From the NCBI GenBank assembly GCA_040217195.1, contig JAVJNR010000003.1, positions 768,001-832,000 of the forward strand: a stretch of 64,000 bases of DNA, given 5' to 3'. This DNA is from Leptospiraceae bacterium (GTDB taxonomy: Bacteria; Spirochaetota; Leptospiria; Leptospirales; Leptonemataceae). Of the stretch, positions 18,327 to 30,732 are shown piece after piece. The translations under genes were made by a program, and so were the position numbers. Numbering within the stretch: position 1 is the stretch's first letter; every line of letters begins with the position of its first letter. Under the pieces are notes generated by a model. The model had not been told where the DNA came from and ran no database searches. It saw only the letters and a list, made by a program, of their open reading frames with translations.

Positions 18327-19589
18327 TCAGACTCTCAGGGAATCCGCAACGCTACTCATTTCAGCCAGGAGCAGATAACTGGCTACCCGCCCCATTCCTT
18401 TTAGCTCCACAAAGCCCCTTTCTTCGAACTGAAACTTGCCCTTGAGTAGAGAGTAAGTAGATTCGGTAACCTGAACTTTACCTGGCACCCCGCTGGATTC
18501 CATTCTAGACGCAGTGTTTACGCTTTTGCCCCAGAGGTCATAGACGAATTTCTTTTTTCCAATTACCCCGGCCACCGCATCGCCGGATGCCATGCCGATG
18601 CGAATCTCCAGTGGTAGCTCCTCTACCTCACGGTATCTCCGCACCACTTCCAACATATCCAGGGCAAATCTGGCTACACTCTCTGCATGCTTCTGGTCTG
18701 GTTCTGGTAATCCGCCAACCACCATATAAGCATCGCCTATGGTTTTGATTTTCTCCAGACCATGCTTTTCTGCCAGGTCATCAAACTCAGAGAAGATGCG
18801 ATTTAGCAGATCCACAACATCCACAGGACTCATGGAATGCGACATTTCAGTAAATCCCACAATGTCAGAAAACAAAATAGTACATTCTTCGAACCGCTCC
18901 GCAATGGTATCCGGGCTTTCGCGAAGCTTATCCACAATGGAAGCGGGTAAAATGTTCAGCAGCAATTTCTCTGATTTGGATCTCTCCAGGTGTAAATAGG
19001 TCTCCGCCACTTCATAGATTCGACTGATATAGGCCGCAAGTCCCAGGGTCAGGACCCCTGCACCCAGCAAATTGGCCCTTGAGATGGATAGCATATCCTG
19101 CTGGGTCCAGTTCAGATTGCGCCCCATCTCCGGTAAGTAAATGTGCAGAGCTGCCAGTTCCAGAAGAGCGGCAAAGCCAGTGAAGTTCATCCAGCTACGC
19201 TGTCTGGCCGGAAAAATGAAGAATTGAGCCAGTATGACGGGAAACAGAAAGAAGTGAAAGTTGGACTCCGCCCCCATAAGAAAGCTCATCAAACCCATGA
19301 AGATCATGCCGCTCAGAGAAAAGTATAGCCGGGCCAGCAGTCTGTATCCTTTTCCGTTTAGAAACAGCACACCAAGTAATAGAAGACTGTATACGAGTGG
19401 GATTTTGGGCAGGAGCTGCAGATTATCTGGAAGAATGGCAACGGAGATGCCGGTAAATATCAGAGTAAAAAGTAGCATCAAAACGGCCAGGGTATTAACC
19501 AGCAGCACATTCTTCTGCTCTGCTTCATCTTTTACCCCCGTCATCCCACTATAGGCGATGGTATTCCAGATCAGCTGAAGCATAGACAC
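18327..19589 (-). CDS. membrane class III adenylate/guanylate cyclase
   Basis: About 6 TM helices; ILFSDIVGFT, KIKTIGDAYM and YDLWGKSVNTASRMES motifs. Confidence 0.94.
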   Translation of the reverse strand: MSMLQLIWNTIAYSGMTGVKDEAEQKNVLLVNTLAVLMLLFTLIFTGISVAILPDNLQLLPKIPLVYSLLLLGVLFLNGKGYRLLARLYFSLSGMIFMGLMSFLMGAESNFHFFLFPVILAQFFIFPARQRSWMNFTGFAALLELAALHIYLPEMGRNLNWTQQDMLSISRANLLGAGVLTLGLAAYISRIYEVAETYLHLERSKSEKLLLNILPASIVDKLRESPDTIAERFEECTILFSDIVGFTEMSHSMSPVDVVDLLNRIFSEFDDLAEKHGLEKIKTIGDAYMVVGGLPEPDQKHAESVARFALDMLEVVRRYREVEELPLEIRIGMASGDAVAGVIGKKKFVYDLWGKSVNTASRMESSGVPGKVQVTESTYSLLKGKFQFEERGFVELKGMGRVASYLLLAEMSSVADSLRV

Positions 19590-19675
19590 AGATAGTCAAA
19601 AAGTCCTTACTACGGCGCAACCATTTTGTCTGGGGTTCAGCAAAATGACTTAAAAAGTCCCCGTTGCAGCCCACT

Positions 19676-20122
19676 CAAGGCTCGCAGAGCCGCCACTCTT
19701 CCCGGAGCTCACAAGCAAGGAGGCCTTGCCACAGACCGCCGTTCCGGAGCAACGGCCGGACAGGAAGTCCGCAAGGTCCGAAGGACCGCCATTCTTCCCG
19801 GAGCTCACAAGCAAGGAGGCCTTGCCACAGACCACCGTTCCGGAGCAACGGGCGGACAGGAAGTCCGCAAGGTCCGAAGGACCGCCACTTTTCCCGGAGC
19901 TCACAAGCCAGGAGGCCTTGCCACAGACCACCGTTCCGGCGCAACGGGCGGACAGGAAGTCCGCAAGGCTCGCAGAGCCGCCACTCTTCCCGGAGCTCAA
20001 AAGCAAGGAGGCCTTGCGGCAGACCACCGTTCCGGAGGAACGGGCGGACAGGAAGTCCGCAAGGTCCGAAGGACCGCCATTCTTCCGGGAGGTCGCAAGC
20101 CAGGAGGGCTTGCGAAAGACCA
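19676..20122. repeat. tandem array of 96-bp multi-hairpin units (4 full + 1 partial)
   Basis: Units start at 19676, 19772, 19868, 19964 and 20060, exactly 96 bp apart; each holds four short inverted repeats. Confidence 0.95.
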
Positions 20123-20141
20123 ACTCTAAAAAAGACTTCCC

Positions 20142-20726
20142 ATGCTTGCCGAGCTCTTGAATTGTCACGCTGTGCGCCCCCTACCTGAAGTGCATAGCAC
20201 AGAATCGATTTCGGCTTTGTTAGAACAGTGCGAGTCCATTCAAAAGGCTGTGGAGACCTTTATCCGAGAGATACCTCTGGAGTATTTGAATGAGCAGGGT
20301 TATCCTGAAGGATGGAGTCCGGCTCGCAACATCAAACATGTAGGCAACAGCCTGACTCTATTTTCCAAGTTCATAGGGGCCCCGGCCTGGTTTATAGCTC
20401 TATTCGGAAAGGCGAAAGCCTCCATGCCACCCATTGAATCAGTGCGGCCCACCAATCGTCCGCCCAGGTACGATTACGGAACCTATAAGCCCGGCAAGCC
20501 CTGCACGGAAGAAAAGAGGGAGGCCCTAATCCAGGGGCTGGCCCGAAGTTTCGAACGGTTCAAAAAATCCCTGCAGAAGCGCAATGAAGAAGAAATGGAC
20601 CGCCGAAAAGGGCTCTTTGGGGGCATGAGCCTGCGACTATTTGCTCATTTTGTGCTCAAACATACGGTTTTTCATCTTCAGGTGGTCCGGACCCGCCTTC
20701 AGACAGCCTCAGAATTGGCCGGCTGA
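20142..20726 (+). CDS. DinB/YfiT-family protein
   Basis: GWSPARNIKHV and FVLKHTVFHL His motifs of the DinB four-helix fold. Confidence 0.8.
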   Translation: MLAELLNCHAVRPLPEVHSTESISALLEQCESIQKAVETFIREIPLEYLNEQGYPEGWSPARNIKHVGNSLTLFSKFIGAPAWFIALFGKAKASMPPIESVRPTNRPPRYDYGTYKPGKPCTEEKREALIQGLARSFERFKKSLQKRNEEEMDRRKGLFGGMSLRLFAHFVLKHTVFHLQVVRTRLQTASELAG

Positions 20727-20812: not shown

Positions 20813-22264
20813 ATGTCGACAGAATTAATAGATAGAACCGATCAGAATGAACCAGCTTTTTACGAGGCCGATGGGTTTCCCCGAGGTCTGAACCGAAAGG
20901 TGGTAGAATCCATTTCCCACATCAAGAATGAACCGGGATGGCTTACCGAATTCAGGCTTCAGGCCCTGGAAACATTTCAGTCCAAACCCATGCCAACCTG
21001 GGGCTTTATTCCTCAGTTCAACATCAACCTGGAAGACTACATTCACTACGTAGGCTCGAATAAGAAAAAGAAAAAGTCCTGGGATGAAGTGGATCCGGAT
21101 GTACTGGAAAGTTTTGAAAGACTGGGCATTCCAGAACATGAACGAAGATACCTGGCCGGCCTGGAAGCGATGAACGATTCAGAGACGGTCTATGCCAACG
21201 TTAAGAAAGAACTGGAAGACCTGGATATTATCTTCTGCGATATAGATACAGCCATCCGGGAGTATCCTGAACTTGTTAAGAAGTACCTTGGCTCAGTAGT
21301 AACTCCAGATGATAACAAATTTGCTGCATTGAATAGTGCCGTTTTTAGTGGAGGCTCTTTTGCTTACTGTCCTCCAGGAGTAAAAACTCCCATGCCCTTG
21401 CAGGCCTATTTCAAGGTTACGGCTGCCAGCTCGGGACAATATGAGCGAACTCTATTGATTGCAGATGAAGGAGCGGAAATCGTCTACAGCGAAGGATGCA
21501 CCTCATTGCAAGATGCAGGTACGAACTTCCATACGGCTGTCGTAGAACTTGTAGCTCTTGAGAAATCTAGAATCCATTATACAACAATCCAGAACTGGAA
21601 AAAGAATATGTATAACTGGACTGTGAAGCGTGGCCTGGCAGAAAAGGAAGCGCATATCACATGGACTGATGTCAACATTGGCGCTCAGACTATGAAGTAT
21701 CCGGGAATTATTCTCAAGGGAGATAGATCCACCGGTGACATTCTATCCCTGGCTTTTGCAGGCTCCAATCAAATCCAGGACACAGGTGCCAGGGTAATTC
21801 ATGTTGGAAAAGATACCAGGTCCAATGTACTGGCCAAAGGCGTTTCCCTGGACGGAGGAATCAACTCCTACAGAGGCCTTGTAAAGTTTGACAAATCAGC
21901 CACCGGAGCCTTCAGTCATGTTAAATGCGATGGCTTGATGATGGATGATAGAAGTCAGTCCCATGCATATCCTTACAATGATGTGGCCGGCGCCGATGGT
22001 TCTTTGAACTACGAGGCTACCGTTTCCAAGATCGATGAGGACATGCTCTTTTATCTGCAATGTCGAGGTCTCAACGAAGATGAAGCGAAGCTTCTTATCG
22101 TAAACGGTTTCTGCGACGGTGTGGTCAGGGATCTTAACGTTGAATACTCGGTAGAAATGAGTCGGCTTATTCGAATGATTCTTGAGGATGGAAAAGCCAT
22201 CGAAAGAAAGGATCAGAAAAAACAGGAAGTGCCTCAGGCCTCCGTGTCCGGGCCAGCCTGTTAA
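20813..22264 (+). CDS. sufB: Fe-S cluster assembly protein SufB
   Basis: [44 protein letters not shown] and EATVSKI motifs. Confidence 0.97.
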
Positions 22265-22375
22265 AGCGTTTCTATTCCGGTCAGTACCGTGACCGGATCA
22301 TACTTGCAGACGCTAAATGCATAAAATCAGCCGGTACAGCCATGCTGGCCGGCGAATTATTTTAAGGAAAAAAAT

Positions 22376-23137
22376 ATGACTGCAATCATAGAGATTAAAG
22401 ACCTTCATGTTGAGGTCGAAGAGACAGAAATTTTAAAAGGTGTAAACCTTTCTATCCCTGCCGGGGAGATTCATGCTATAATGGGGCCCAATGGTTCAGG
22501 CAAGAGTACTCTTTCCAATGCAATCATGGGGCATCCCAACTATAAGATTACTGGCGGAGACATCCTATTCAAAGGAGAATCCATTCTAGGATGGTCCACC
22601 GATGAAAGAGCTCGTAAAGGTCTTTTCCTTTGTTTCCAGTATCCCACGGCCATCCCCGGCGTTACAGTGACTAACTTCCTTCGTAATGTCTTGAAGAATG
22701 TTCGAGGCAAGGATGTGCCGGTTCGGGAATTTCGCACGGAAGTCAAGCAGGCCATGGAAGAACTGCAGATGGATTCCAATTTCATGGGACGATATGTAAA
22801 CGATGGATTCTCCGGCGGGGAGAAAAAGAGAAATGAAATCCTGCAAATGAGCCTGATGAAACCAGGGCTGGCCATTCTAGATGAGGTGGACTCCGGACTT
22901 GATATTGATGCACTACGAATCATCGCCCAGAATATTGAGAAACAGAACAACCAGGATCGATCCATGCTGGTAATCACCCACTATCAGAGAATCCTGAACT
23001 ATTTATCCCTGGATAAGGTACATATCTTTCTGGATGGACGGGTGCAGACCAGCGGTGGTCCTGAACTCGCCGAGCGTCTGGAAAAAGAAGGTTATGACTG
23101 GGTAAGCAAAGCCGCTGCTGCCGGAGGCAATGCATGA
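22376..23137 (+). CDS. sufC: Fe-S assembly ATPase SufC
   Basis: [33 protein letters not shown] and ITHYQR motifs. Confidence 0.97.
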
Positions 23138-24339
23138 GCGGGGTCGCCCAGATCCAGAACGAAGCCATAAATGCATTAAAAGCCGGTACGGAGAATTTGC
23201 CCGATCGGTCCAGCGAGCAATGGCGCAAGGTTCGCCTGGATGGAGTTGATGTTTTCTCTCGAAAGCCTGGAGAATTCAGCTTTGACCTGGCCTACAGCAA
23301 GGAATCCGGCGTTCCTCTGAATAGCTACAGCGAATTGCCCTCCCCGGCAAAGGGAGCGCAGACAAGCTACGAACAGGCAGGAATGAAGATTCTTGAGCCC
23401 GGCGAAGGAACCTTTGGTCAACATTGGTCCTGGCTAATAAATCGTGCTCGAGACACCAGAGATCCATTCGAATTAACTACACTTGGCTATGGACAGCCAG
23501 TGGGATTGCACATCCAGCAGGACATTGCATTACGAATTCGCTATGAGGCCGGCCAAGGTAATCTGTACCTACCATCCATTTACATAAAGGTGGACCCGGA
23601 CAAAGAACTGGATTTGTACATTGAATATTCCGATCCCAACGGGAACTCCGAAGAGCTGGGACGTATGTGGAGCAGCACTACTTTTATTGATGCCGGGAAC
23701 AATGCTCGAGTGCGAATTGTAGACAGCAGAAAACATGATGATCTTAGCTTTCACTTTCATCGACTGGATGTAGTTGAAGGTCGGGACAGCAATGTGCACT
23801 ATTGTGCCGTACATCGCGGTGGATTGACCGGAAAGGGCTTTGTTCGCACTAGAGCGATAGAAAAAGGAGCCTTCTTTCGCGGAATAGGATTGTACACCGG
23901 ACGTTCCGCTCAGCTGCATGATATGGAAATGGAAATCAGCCATGAGGCAGACCATTGCGTCAGCACTTTGCTCTACAAGACAGTGCTCCGCGACAGAGCT
24001 CACAGTATTTTCAATGGTTCCCTGGTGGCGCCGCCTCATATCAAACAGGTAGACTCCCATCAGACCAACAATAACATACTACTAAGCAAGAAGGCAAGGG
24101 CTGAGTCCATGCCAAGATTGATTATTCAATCGGAAGATGTTTCCTGCGAACACGGAGCTACAGTGGGTGACCTGGATGAACAGGCACTATTCTTTCTGCA
24201 GTGCAGAGGAATTCCTCTGGAGGAAGCTAGACGCATCCTGATTGAAGGATTCATGGAAGAAATTCTCTCCGAATTACGAATGACCGAAGAAGATCTTGCC
24301 AGCATGCGCGATGAACTGTTTCCAATACTCCAGAGTTAA
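23134..24339 (+). CDS. sufD: Fe-S assembly protein SufD
   Basis: C-terminal [39 protein letters not shown] overlap with sufC. Confidence 0.92.
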
Positions 24340-24455
24340 ATCCACAGAACTCGAATTTTCCGTGCTGAGCTCAGGCCGGTTGGGCCGTCGTCCATACCGG
24401 CCACTTGCCTGGTCGCTACGGGAATAGAAGAAACAATTCCGCAACAGGAGAGAAC

Positions 24456-24764
24456 ATGGCTGAAAAACTGGCCTCAGAATCAGAAATCAAAGAAGGTGAA
24501 GTGTTCACCTGTAATACCAGGATTGGCAGGGTGGCCCTGACTCGGTTGAACGGTAAGATCTGCGCCTTTGAGAACACCTGCACTCATGATGGAGGCCCCT
24601 TGAATGGGGGCACTCTGGACGGAAATGAAATCGTATGCCCCAGGCATGGAGCCAGGTTTAACGTTGAATCCGGGGAGGCCACCCGGATGCCGGCCACGGA
24701 AAGTATTGAGATTTATCCTGTGGAAGTGGAGAACGGAGAGGTCATGGTAGATTTGGACGCCTAG
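24456..24764 (+). CDS. Rieske-type ferredoxin
   Basis: CTHDG and CPRHGARF Rieske ligands; AGGAG RBS. Confidence 0.93.
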   Translation: MAEKLASESEIKEGEVFTCNTRIGRVALTRLNGKICAFENTCTHDGGPLNGGTLDGNEIVCPRHGARFNVESGEATRMPATESIEIYPVEVENGEVMVDLDA

Positions 24765-24915
24765 AAGGCCTGGAACCAGACCAGATTACCACTCAAATCC
24801 AGCCCGAAAGGCCGGAGGCTCAGGTCAGTAGCTTTGCCGACAAAAACACTGGCAAGGCAGGGTGCTGGCTATTTTTTTACCGGAGAAAGGTTTCGTACCG
24901 GGAGATTGGCATTCC

Positions 24916-26187
24916 ATGTCGGGAAAATTACTGGATTATCAAAAAATTAAAGAGGACTTCCCCATTCTGTCCAGCAAGATGAATGGGCAGCCGCTGGTAT
25001 TTCTGGATAGCGCCGCCAGCTCCCAGAAACCACGGCGAGTCATTGAAGCCTTTGAAGATTATTACCGCTGCAGAAATGCAAACATCCACCGAGGTGCCTA
25101 TCGACTGAGTTATGAGGCCACAGACCTCTATGATCGAACAAGGGCCAGACTGGCCAAATTCATAGGCGCATCGGATCCAGACACAGTAATCTTCACACGA
25201 AACACTACCGAAGGACTTAACATTGTAGCCTATAGCTGGGCCATGAATGAACTAAAGCCCGGCGATGAGATACTGGTAAGCGAATTGGAACATCATTCCA
25301 ATCTGGTACCCTGGATGATGGCCGCCCGAAAAACCGGGGCTGTGATTCGTCATATTCCATTGACTGAAGATGCACGCTACGATCTGACTCGGCTACCTGA
25401 AGTAATTAGCAATCGCACTCGAATCGTATCCGTTGCCCATATGTCCAATGCAGTGGGTACCATTCATGACCTGCAGGCTATTGGCAAGGCCGCCAGAGCA
25501 GCCGGAGCGTTGTTTGTTGTAGATGGTGCTCAGGGCGCCTGTCATTTGAATGTAAATGTAGAAGAGCTTGATTGTGATTTCTATGCATTGAGTGCGCATA
25601 AGATGCTGGGGCCCACAGGTGTGGGAGCGCTATACGGCAAGCGCGATATCCTGGAGAATATGGAACCCTTTCTGGGCGGCGGCGATATGATCCTTACGGT
25701 TTCTGCGGATTCCTTCAAGCCTGCACCCCTGCCCATGAAATTCGAAGCAGGTACACCGAACATCGCAGGCGTGGTTGCTTTTTCGGTGGCTCTGGACTAT
25801 TTAAGTCAGGTAGGTCTGGAGAATATTCACAATCATGAAGTGGCTCTTCTGGAATATGGCCTGGATGCAATGAAGAAGATTCCCGGCATCCGGCTGTTCG
25901 GTAGCCAGGAGTTAGAACATCGAGGGGGAGTCATAAGCTTTCTTCTGGAGGGTGTGCATCCCCACGATATAGGCAGTATCCTGGATGAAGAAGGGGTAGC
26001 GGTCCGGGCAGGTCATCATTGCTGCGAACCATTCATGAAAAAAGAAGGCATATCCGGTACAGTGCGAGCCAGCTTTTATCTATACAATGGACCGGAGGAT
26101 GTGGATGCACTGGTGAATGCACTACTCAAGGTGCGAAGCATCTTCAAAATGCCTGCGAACAAAGTGCCTGGACCGGCACAGAGGTAA
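24916..26187 (+). CDS. sufS: cysteine desulfurase SufS
   Basis: FLDSAASSQKP, EHHSN, SAHKMLGPTG, FEAGTP and VRAGHHC motifs. Confidence 0.96.
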   Translation: MSGKLLDYQKIKEDFPILSSKMNGQPLVFLDSAASSQKPRRVIEAFEDYYRCRNANIHRGAYRLSYEATDLYDRTRARLAKFIGASDPDTVIFTRNTTEGLNIVAYSWAMNELKPGDEILVSELEHHSNLVPWMMAARKTGAVIRHIPLTEDARYDLTRLPEVISNRTRIVSVAHMSNAVGTIHDLQAIGKAARAAGALFVVDGAQGACHLNVNVEELDCDFYALSAHKMLGPTGVGALYGKRDILENMEPFLGGGDMILTVSADSFKPAPLPMKFEAGTPNIAGVVAFSVALDYLSQVGLENIHNHEVALLEYGLDAMKKIPGIRLFGSQELEHRGGVISFLLEGVHPHDIGSILDEEGVAVRAGHHCCEPFMKKEGISGTVRASFYLYNGPEDVDALVNALLKVRSIFKMPANKVPGPAQR

Positions 26188-26190
26188 AAA

Positions 26191-26628
26191 ATGTCCCTGA
26201 GCGAAGATCTATACAAAGAGTTAATAATTGAACACAGCCAGGAACCATCCCACCGGGATATTCCTGCAGACCATAATTTACACGAATCTGGAGTAAATCG
26301 TAGCTGCGGTGATGAGGTTGAGGTATATCTCAAAGTAGAAGATGGGGTGATCAAATCCATCGGCATGGGAGGGCATGGCTGCAGCATCTCCACAGCATCT
26401 GGATCCATGATGGCCGATGCAGTGGACGGTATGACCGTGGAGCAGGCCGAAGATCTGATTGAGAAATTCAAATCCATGATCGTGGAAAAGCATCAGATAG
26501 ATTTTCCCGATGGACTGGAAGATCTGGAAGCACTTCGCGGAGTACAGCAATACCCAATCCGAGTCAAATGTGCCACTCTTGCCTGGAATGCCCTGGAGCA
26601 AGCCCTCCAGAACGCCGGTAAATTGTAA
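26191..26628 (+). CDS. sufU: SUF sulfur-transfer protein SufU
   Basis: NRSCGD, GCSIS and RVKCATLAW motifs; follows sufS. Confidence 0.94.
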   Translation: MSLSEDLYKELIIEHSQEPSHRDIPADHNLHESGVNRSCGDEVEVYLKVEDGVIKSIGMGGHGCSISTASGSMMADAVDGMTVEQAEDLIEKFKSMIVEKHQIDFPDGLEDLEALRGVQQYPIRVKCATLAWNALEQALQNAGKL

Positions 26629-30401: not shown

Positions 30402-30512
30402 ATTTCATTCAGACTCATTCACCGGTCAGGTCCTGTTGCCAGCCCACCTCGGCATTGAAGTCTTAGCCTCAATGCCATCCGCTATGCTGGTCTCAGTTCC
30501 CGGGCTTTATTT

Positions 30513-30732
30513 CCGTCCGCTCCACTGGTTTCAGGTTCGGGATTTTTGCCATCCGCGCCACTGATTTCAGATCCGGGATTTTTTGCCGTCCGCACCGCTG
30601 ATTTCAGGTCCGGGATTTTTTGCCGTCCGCACCGCTGATTTCAGGTCCCGCTCTCTTTGCCATCCGCGCCGCTCATTTCAGATCCGGGATTTTTTGCCAT
30701 GCGCGCCGCTCATTTCAGATCCGGGATTTTTA
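30513..30732. repeat. tandem array of 36-37-bp units (6 copies, plus a degenerate copy from about 30475)
   Basis: Consensus about CCRTCCGCRCCGCTSATTTCAGRTCCGGGATTTTTTG; starts at 30513, 30549, 30586, 30623, 30660 and 30697; no spacers. Confidence 0.92.

Follow-up and report, generated by a model that had tools for sequence, protein, structure and literature searches.

The tandem array of short hairpins that separates a cyclase gene from a dinB gene in the stretch of Leptospiraceae DNA analysed here (64,000 nucleotides; the window) is, we conclude with moderate confidence, one of the loci occupied by a genus-level repeat family, whose members are non-autonomous, interspersed hairpin mosaics shaped for single-stranded DNA. 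Modules of this family are dispersed, their stems covary, they have been gained or lost at orthologous sites, and the identity of their loops is narrowly restricted. The array looks more like a mobile element of folded DNA than like a decoy RNA for CsrA, because the orthologous array of a sister species (G002) keeps the hairpins without GGA loops. A sequence-only reading of the window had favoured a CsrA sponge; this does not hold as the main explanation, since GGA is not a conserved feature, the GGA-free array of G002 occurring alongside a CsrA core 98% identical to that of the host genome (G000). In the papers found by a literature search whose coverage stopped short of most subscription journals and of some supplements (PMC2864571 and two preprints), the family is not described, and it is apparently uncatalogued.

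The array comprises four full units of 96 bp and a 63-nt partial fifth, with unit starts at 19676, 19772, 19868, 19964 and 20060 (Table 1). TRF reports it as 19690-20122, with a period of 96, 4.5 copies, 90% matches, no indels and a score of 705. The extent, period and copy number proposed from the sequence alone are thereby confirmed, as are the placement between a minus-strand cyclase gene and a plus-strand dinB gene (PF00211 and PF12867) and the alternation of hairpin A between one version in copies 1 and 4 and another in copies 2, 3 and 5. The estimate of about 25 GGA on the plus strand, 5-6 per unit, proves exact at 25, with 16 on the minus strand; dinucleotide shuffles of single units contain 2.0-2.9 (P 0.005-0.04 per unit, the units being non-independent). 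Folding z-scores are -3.2 for the plus strand and -2.3 for the minus strand. For dinB, the start conserved in all five orthologues lies at 20172 (GTG) rather than at 20142 (ATG). No long inverted repeat was found around the array, no duplicated flank was detected at its locus, and a simple scan of the array revealed neither a promoter-like site nor a plus-strand terminator-like site. Rfam has no family at cut-off anywhere in the window; weak matches to rsmX, Acido-Lenti-1 and miRNA models were taken as chance. Elsewhere in the window, a suf-type Fe-S cluster operon follows dinB (20813-26628; its first gene matches PF01458/PF19295 and the others were judged from ORF translations), and an unrelated tandem array of seven copies of a 37-bp unit, without a match to the module model, lies at 30473-30731.

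Table 1. Features of the array and its flanks, and positions of two further repeat sets. Positions refer to the window, except those with a contig label, which refer to contigs of the host genome.
Feature	Position	Strand	Basis or remark
Tandem array of the mosaic hairpin repeat (four complete units of 96 bp, one partial of 63 nt)	19676..20122	+	repeat finding
Head module, truncated: lacks hairpin D but has hairpin A, the linker and hairpin B/X	19669..19742	+	model R1, E 7e-4
Core module 1 (D, A, linker, B/X, tail)	19756..19838	+	model R1, 53.5 bits; model partly built from this sequence
Core module 2	19852..19934	+	model R1, 64.4 bits
Core module 3	19948..20030	+	model R1, 54.5 bits
Core module 4, terminal, best-paired	20044..20126	+	model R1, 76.5 bits
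Hairpin A, 5-bp stem, C-GNA-G triloop	19679..19691; again 19775, 19871, 19967, 20063	+	family census, GNA 115/144
Hairpin C, variable spacer hairpin	19739..19755; again 19835, 19931, 20027	+	full pairing with GGA triloop only at 20027
Hairpin D, 6-bp stem, AGGAA pentaloop (candidate CsrA-type site)	19852..19868; also 19756 (5 bp), 19948, 20044	+	weak rsmX match, E 0.12, far under cut-off
Hairpin B/X of last unit; 9-bp stem 20093-20115, AGGAG pentaloop	20086..20122	+	degenerate in earlier units
Fixed right end (tail) of element, last letters CTA	20118..20128	+	common to G002, G005
Host motif left of array, possibly part of a promoter	19614..19630	.	kept in orthologues with and without array
Membrane adenylate/guanylate cyclase gene, left neighbour	18327..19589	-	PF00211, E 2.9e-64
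DinB_2-superfamily gene, right neighbour	20172..20726 (ORF also open from ATG 20142)	+	PF12867, E 6.4e-08
Second repeat set	C1:3371-3397, C1:18148-18185, C1:41777-41802, C1:44014-44040, C3:89060-89547	mixed	pattern
Second repeat set, more loci	C4:598544-598764, C7:272-1402, C10:290444-290603, C10:532956-533118, C2:499922-500057	mixed	pattern
Third repeat family, examples	C1:37607, C4:241589, C4:312028, C4:325156, C4:552857, C5:523941, C5:605380, C5:613058, C6:25675, C10:318581		

The hairpins proposed by the sequence-only reading exist, but its placing of GGA in their loops survives only in part: in the predicted fold of the array, only 4 of the 25 GGA have all three bases unpaired with a probability above 0.7 (6 above 0.5), whereas 8 are part of the paired arms of A, C or D, and the base of hairpin B accounts for another 5. 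The AGGAG loop ascribed to hairpin B is clean in copy 5, but in copies 1, 2 and 4 the predicted structure is a stem of 6 bp capped by 3 nt, in which the GG is buried. Hairpin C pairs fully in copy 4, but its GGA there forms a C-GNA-G triloop rather than an ANGGA loop, and the GGA is gone in copy 3; the outer pair of hairpin D is broken in copy 1.

The family shares a core of 85 nt, composed of a pentaloop hairpin (D, 6 bp), two bases, a GNA-triloop hairpin (A, 5 bp), a linker, a long pentaloop hairpin (B/X, about 10 bp, plus an internal loop rich in purines and 3 additional pairs) and a fixed tail, and successive modules are connected by the variable fourth hairpin, C. RNAalifold, applied to a core alignment of 30 modules from four genomes, recovered this same fold without guidance, with a covariation of 0.58 as compared with 0.17 in shuffles; the modules had been chosen by a filter that favours pairing in D. 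Among 144 distinct modules, 92.5% of cells pair and changes on both sides of a pair number 903, against 276 in shuffles, while covariation reaches 0.619 against at most 0.084 in slid controls, in an alignment that is model-fitted and contains non-independent kin. The alignment and folding suggested by the sequence-only reading have thus yielded strong covariation. A likeness of the tail to domains 5/6 of group II introns was considered and set aside, as covariation supports a different pairing.

The covariance model of the core identifies 31 modules at 10 loci in the host genome (4.6 Mb, 10 contigs) and 44, 25, 18, 13, 5 and 2 modules in six genus mates. Outside the genus, it gives one match each in 3 of 35 other genomes of the taxonomic family and weak matches in 3 of 150 other genomes of the phylum, and none in the 16 genomes of the sister family. 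Neither plasmid or phage records nor viral contigs hold a match to the family; 15 metagenome matches are listed. The sequence-only reading had offered a REP-like element as its alternative and held that many dispersed copies would favour it. Modules at 10-12 loci agree with that expectation, although the dispersal is visible only at the module level, a blastn search with the whole 96-bp unit finding it at the array locus alone, and although a GTAG tag is lacking and RAYT/TnpA is absent from all five genomes searched. The neighbours of the arrays are unrelated housekeeping genes with no common function, among them gene families of the Leptospira type. Two single modules were seen outside the genus, one abutting the 3′ end of a tmRNA gene on the opposite strand (L156:2575-2659) and one just upstream of an OmpL1 porin gene (L194:2573-2656).

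The loops are conserved in a particular manner. In the host genome, A[G/C]GAN is the commonest type of 5-nt loop closed by C-G, and such loops are clustered at many intergenic sites. Across the family, the second position of the pentaloop is G in 147 cases, C in 61, T in 2 and A in none (n=210), with 61 of the 210 loops reading ACGAN, and 162 of 288 D and X loops contain GGA. If a CsrA site were simply decaying, A or T should also turn up at this position, which is nearly devoid of both; the pattern is not one of simple decay. The triloop of hairpin A is GNA in 115 of 144 modules, all four nucleotides occurring at N. C-GNA-G also closes 35 of 89 C hairpins as opposed to 1 of 67 terminator-like hairpins of the host genome, whereas GNRA or UUCG loops occur in 2 of the 89 and 7 of the 67. 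Such GCGNAGC minihairpins belong to the motifs of DNA, their RNA equivalents being far less stable, and they are present in single-stranded DNA signals, according to the review by Hirao (PMC13037366). Structured RNA usually contains more G-U than the 3% or so found here (86 of 3002 paired cells, the other 2916 being Watson-Crick). G-U cells exceed A-C cells by 86 to 55, an excess that tells no more than which strand folds, namely the one with GGA.

Comparison of orthologous loci reveals both turnover and persistence. Between the cyclase and dinB genes there are 5 modules in G000, 3 in G002 and 6 in G005, and none in G003 or G004; all four hairpins are retained in the relatives with different stems, and the units measure 96, 98 and 97/98 bp, respectively. 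Together with covariation of 0.58-0.62 against about 0.16 in shuffles, these lengths uphold the earlier proposal that secondary structure rather than protein is under selection, or else under repair. The loops of the G002 array are ACGAT and ACGAG, none with GGA (one loop includes an unknown base, its second letter being C), and those of the G005 array mix 7 GGA with 5 CGA loops; 0 of 6 GGA are predicted to be open in the former and 7 of 22 in the latter. Arrays at a transporter locus in G002, G005 and G006 likewise have no GGA loops. Two arrays of G004 correspond to empty sites in G000, and one G004 module lies inside an Rpn-family gene, where it replaces about 30 nt and stops a frame that is intact in the G000 counterpart. 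Module identity is 0.67 at the same locus between genomes, 0.58 between loci of one genome and 0.56 otherwise, and for 64 of 127 modules the nearest outside neighbour occupies the same locus in another genome. Modules are therefore mostly inherited with their locus, and most insertions are old; concerted evolution within genomes, which we also considered, is unsupported by these values. Eleven orthologous sites hold modules in 3-6 genomes, and such long retention suggests selection and is consistent with function. Something has kept the stems paired in place, either selection or a correction of one arm on the other.

Arrays contain 1-6 modules in local head-to-tail copies, some modules are nested in the pentaloops of others, and inverted modules give a mixed orientation in 1 of 66 arrays. 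The tail end, about 9 nt from the stem, is fixed, whereas heads end at variable points. The tail is followed by CTA in 24 and ATA in 14 of the 46 ends scored (CTAC in 2 of the 46), and it lies shortly before the start of a sense gene, often by 3-60 nt, or against the stop of a convergent gene. When an array ends within 17 nt of a convergent ORF, that stop is TAG in 13 of 13 cases (4 orthologous groups; 4 arrays with a more distant antisense ORF were left out of this tally), compared with 643 of 2468 ORFs (26%) in the background; GTAG REP termini likewise abut or supply TAG stops (PMC3733652, available part). At co-directional loci, the GGA strand is the sense strand in 9 of 12 (P 0.15) and antisense to both neighbours in the other 3, by a hand tally on mechanical ORF calls, and no significant replication-strand bias was detected (9/13, P 0.27). 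At an acyl-CoA dehydrogenase locus in G002 and G005, the array opens on an inverted copy of the end of the gene and, on its far side, runs into a direct duplicate of that end. Target duplication is not a general rule, being present in only 2 of 60 arrays; another match in this tally proved to be an internal tail. The acyl-CoA dehydrogenase layout is that of tRNA-linked GGA-hairpin repeats in distant spirochaetes and is reminiscent of the gene-end capture described for BIMEs in the available part of PMC2817692. [quoted passage not shown]

These features can be assembled into a mechanism. The unit is a core of three hairpins plus a variable fourth, whose stems vary by double changes while the loops, the internal loop and one end remain fixed. 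By comparison among genomes, units have been gained or lost at orthologous sites, once within a gene, and have been amplified one- to sixfold head to tail, sometimes inverted or nested. We infer that the GGA strand would fold as single-stranded DNA by way of its C-GNA-G minihairpins, and that a host enzyme, an enzyme formerly present, or template switching at the folded strand might join the fixed end to CTA/TAG-type sites. Gene boundaries would be the main places where such insertions are tolerated, and arrays could arise by slippage or rolling-circle copying; their stems might stay perfect because, in the folded state, one arm is corrected on the other, whether or not selection adds to this. 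Binding of CsrA to transcribed arrays with GGA loops would be a side effect rather than the conserved property of the family. In the present array, if it were transcribed with the dinB leader, the four D loops and the last B loop could bind CsrA in this incidental manner.

Several observations weigh against this element reading. Of the five mobiliser families sought, none furnished a mobiliser in the host genome: PF01797, NF047646 and PF02371 are absent from all five genomes searched (77-94% complete in the case of the first two), the PF00078 reverse transcriptase occurs in one of five, which is not the host, without a module in the 3.4 kb around it, and the search with PF04986 gave no information on a mobiliser. 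Self-comparison of ORFs in the host revealed no multi-copy transposase beyond an IS3-like pair. Copy numbers of 2-44 per genome are low, unlike those of active REPs. Inheritance of modules mostly with their locus, which makes most insertions old, and long retention at the 11 orthologous sites count on the same side. The rarity of target duplication, the sense-strand preponderance of GGA and the absence of replication-strand bias also tell against it, and about two thirds of the pentaloops carry GGA and the excess of G-U over A-C fits RNA as well as DNA.

The competing explanation closest to the original proposal is that the family is kept as an RNA that binds CsrA, either as a dispersed modular decoy or as a CsrA-responsive leader or intercistronic element, and we consider this unlikely. 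As the sequence-only reading had expected, the host encodes CsrA and FliW: fliW and csrA are adjacent, csrA is present in 5/5 relatives tested, and ANGGAG occurs at the ribosome site in 3 of 4 flagellin leaders, so that a canonical CsrA system is present. In sequence, hairpin D of the array is a textbook candidate for a CsrA-type site, aligning to the consensus hairpin of rsmX (E 0.12; 21.8 bits, against a cut-off of 56), and GGA is frequent among the commonest C-G-closed pentaloops and in D and X loops. The available parts of the relevant papers report that Leptospira CsrA binding depends on GGA (PMC8668096) and that three repeats of E. coli, RrA/B/F, are CsrA ligands in vitro and have modest effects in vivo (PMC8144298). 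Against this stand the ACGAN loops, the arrays of G002 and of the transporter locus that have none with GGA, and a CsrA whose core varies little within the genus (92-98% identity) and whose RNA-binding end is ordinary. The combination of ACGA loops and nearly identical CsrA in G002 argues that binding of CsrA is probably not the property that has been conserved in the family, short of an unreported relaxation of the site; a relaxed site is conceivable, in that some other CsrA homologues tolerate a change of GGA to GAA, though not loss of the motif (PMC13443453, available part). The predicted burial of most GGA in the array, the three loci at which the GGA strand is antisense to both neighbours, and the lack of promoter-like and terminator-like sites by simple scan and of any Csr-clan match at cut-off further disfavour the RNA explanation.

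Retention at orthologous sites could instead mean that once-mobile repeats were domesticated and are now read by something other than CsrA, whether as an mRNA-stabilising or processing structure of leaders and intercistronic regions or as a docking site, in RNA or single-stranded DNA, for a protein that recognises C-A[G/C]GAN-G loops. The 11 persistent sites with stems turned over by double changes, the G/C restriction of the loop, which is unlike the decay of a CsrA site, and the fixed end close before sense starts would all fit. We nevertheless give this little credence: two of the five orthologues do without modules at the cyclase-dinB locus at no visible cost, copy number varies freely between 1 and 6, the neighbouring genes share no function, and hairpin-templated repair could keep the palindromes perfect without selection. 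It is highly improbable that the array is a coding repeat of 32 amino acids, the alternative named from the sequence alone. Stop-free stretches cover much or all of the array in all three plus-strand frames and in two minus-strand frames, and 96 is divisible by three, but open frames are expected at 65% G+C and 11% T, the units of the relatives measure 97-98 bp, which rules out such a repeat, variation is compensatory rather than synonymous, and none of the four reading frames scanned has a Pfam match above cut-off.

A bolder scenario, which we regard as quite doubtful, is that folded single-stranded cassettes spread and are maintained independently of a transposase, in a manner common to this family and to the GGA-hairpin and tRNA-linked repeats of other spirochaetes. 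A host protein would read the C-A[G/C]GAN-G loops and GNA minihairpins, join the fixed end at TAG/CTA sites, let modules nest in one another's loops and seed, beside genes, CsrA-compatible sites that the host afterwards retains; the G/C loop position would be the signature of this reader.

Other repeats and genomic irregularities were encountered in the host genome. A second, related repeat set combines ANGGAN hexaloops with A[G/C]GAN pentaloops in mixed orientation, three of its members lying beside tRNA genes; its module is also found nested inside hairpin D of the core family. Of 156 genomes of the order, 4 contain its pattern, and each of these belongs to this genus. Members of this set are apparently inserted in frame in two Hint-domain ORFs (C1:1817-3511 and C1:42619-44148), which presumably resemble bacterial polymorphic toxins, and in C1:41655-42017, which we take to be a helix-turn-helix ORF. 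At least 10 further tandem arrays with units of 41-68 bp share a short motif unlike that of the core family and constitute a third repeat family. Two core-family modules near contig ends (C4:615724-615808 and C1:7124-7210) are flanked by genes that border a single array in three relatives, which may mean that an island bearing an IS3-like element inserted at the repeat. Contig C9 (82 kb) has a G+C content of 53%, as compared with 48-49% elsewhere in the genome, and is possibly an island or a plasmid. For the Acido-Lenti-1 lead, which was rejected, both hairpins are paired in 0 of 21 pattern matches outside spirochaete-titled records and in 20 of 21 in 12 spirochaete-titled stretches.

The array is not the first spirochaete CsrB. 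Its wider interest is that dispersed GGA-hairpin repeats, such as TwoAYGGAY and tRNA-linked repeats, have widely been guessed to be CsrA sponges without proof, and the present family provides a natural control, in which orthologous arrays keep the fold while AGGA is swapped for ACGA and CsrA stays nearly identical. The family also adds a repeat with covarying stems and one fixed end, without a known transposase, to those that bear on how such repeats arise.

Hairpin D of the array bears a loop of the type CAGGA(A/U/C)G, which we take to be the motif of the sponge RNAs. [quoted passage not shown] The family differs from them in not being a single gene with a promoter and terminator, in having most of its GGA paired and not conserved, in scoring far below the Rfam cut-off, and in being dispersed and sometimes antisense. 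The terminal inverted repeats and target-site duplications of MITEs are replaced here by a single fixed end and variable heads, and the arrays have no adjacent reverse transcriptase of the kind that accompanies UG27/RT-templating ncRNA arrays.

TwoAYGGAY (RF01731) is likewise a dispersed, copy-variable structured repeat with two GGA-type loops and signs of a mobile-like spread, proposed as a CsrA ligand without proof in the available parts of PMC2864571, PMC4333381 and bioRxiv 10.64898/2026.09.22.753630. Its AYGGAY hexaloops differ from the A[G/C]GAN pentaloops of the present family, a third of which lack GGA; the two pentaloop hairpins of the present family share no basal stem and have GNA-triloop hairpins between them, and the TwoAYGGAY model gives no match over 43 bits in any of five genomes and none at E<=1 in the host. 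The tRNA-linked repeats of E. coli (RrA/B/F among them), as described in PMC8144298, likewise occupy about ten loci with between one and five structured repeats at each, and a unit of theirs may duplicate the 3′ end of the gene upstream, as at the acyl-CoA dehydrogenase locus. Unlike them, the array lies between protein genes, and the core family is not linked to tRNA or rRNA genes, even though an outlying module abuts a tmRNA end; target duplication is also rare. Closest in architecture are the REP and BIME elements, which are extragenic palindromic modules in head-to-tail arrays, with palindromy maintained by complementary changes and with hybrids (Nunvar et al., 2010, PMC2817692; Di Nocera et al., 2013, PMC3733652; available parts). 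The termini that abut or supply TAG stops and the capture of a neighbouring gene's 3′ end, seen in two cases here, are further points of likeness, and REP families of the CGTC type are also without a known transposase. In contrast to REPs, the present units carry no GTAG/GTGG or CGTC tag by the stem, link three to four hairpins each, are nearly all in the same orientation rather than alternating, number 2-44 rather than hundreds of copies, and occur without RAYT in 5/5 genomes. The family thus works like BIME/REP mosaics and resembles TwoAYGGAY and the tRNA-linked repeats, while belonging to none of them.
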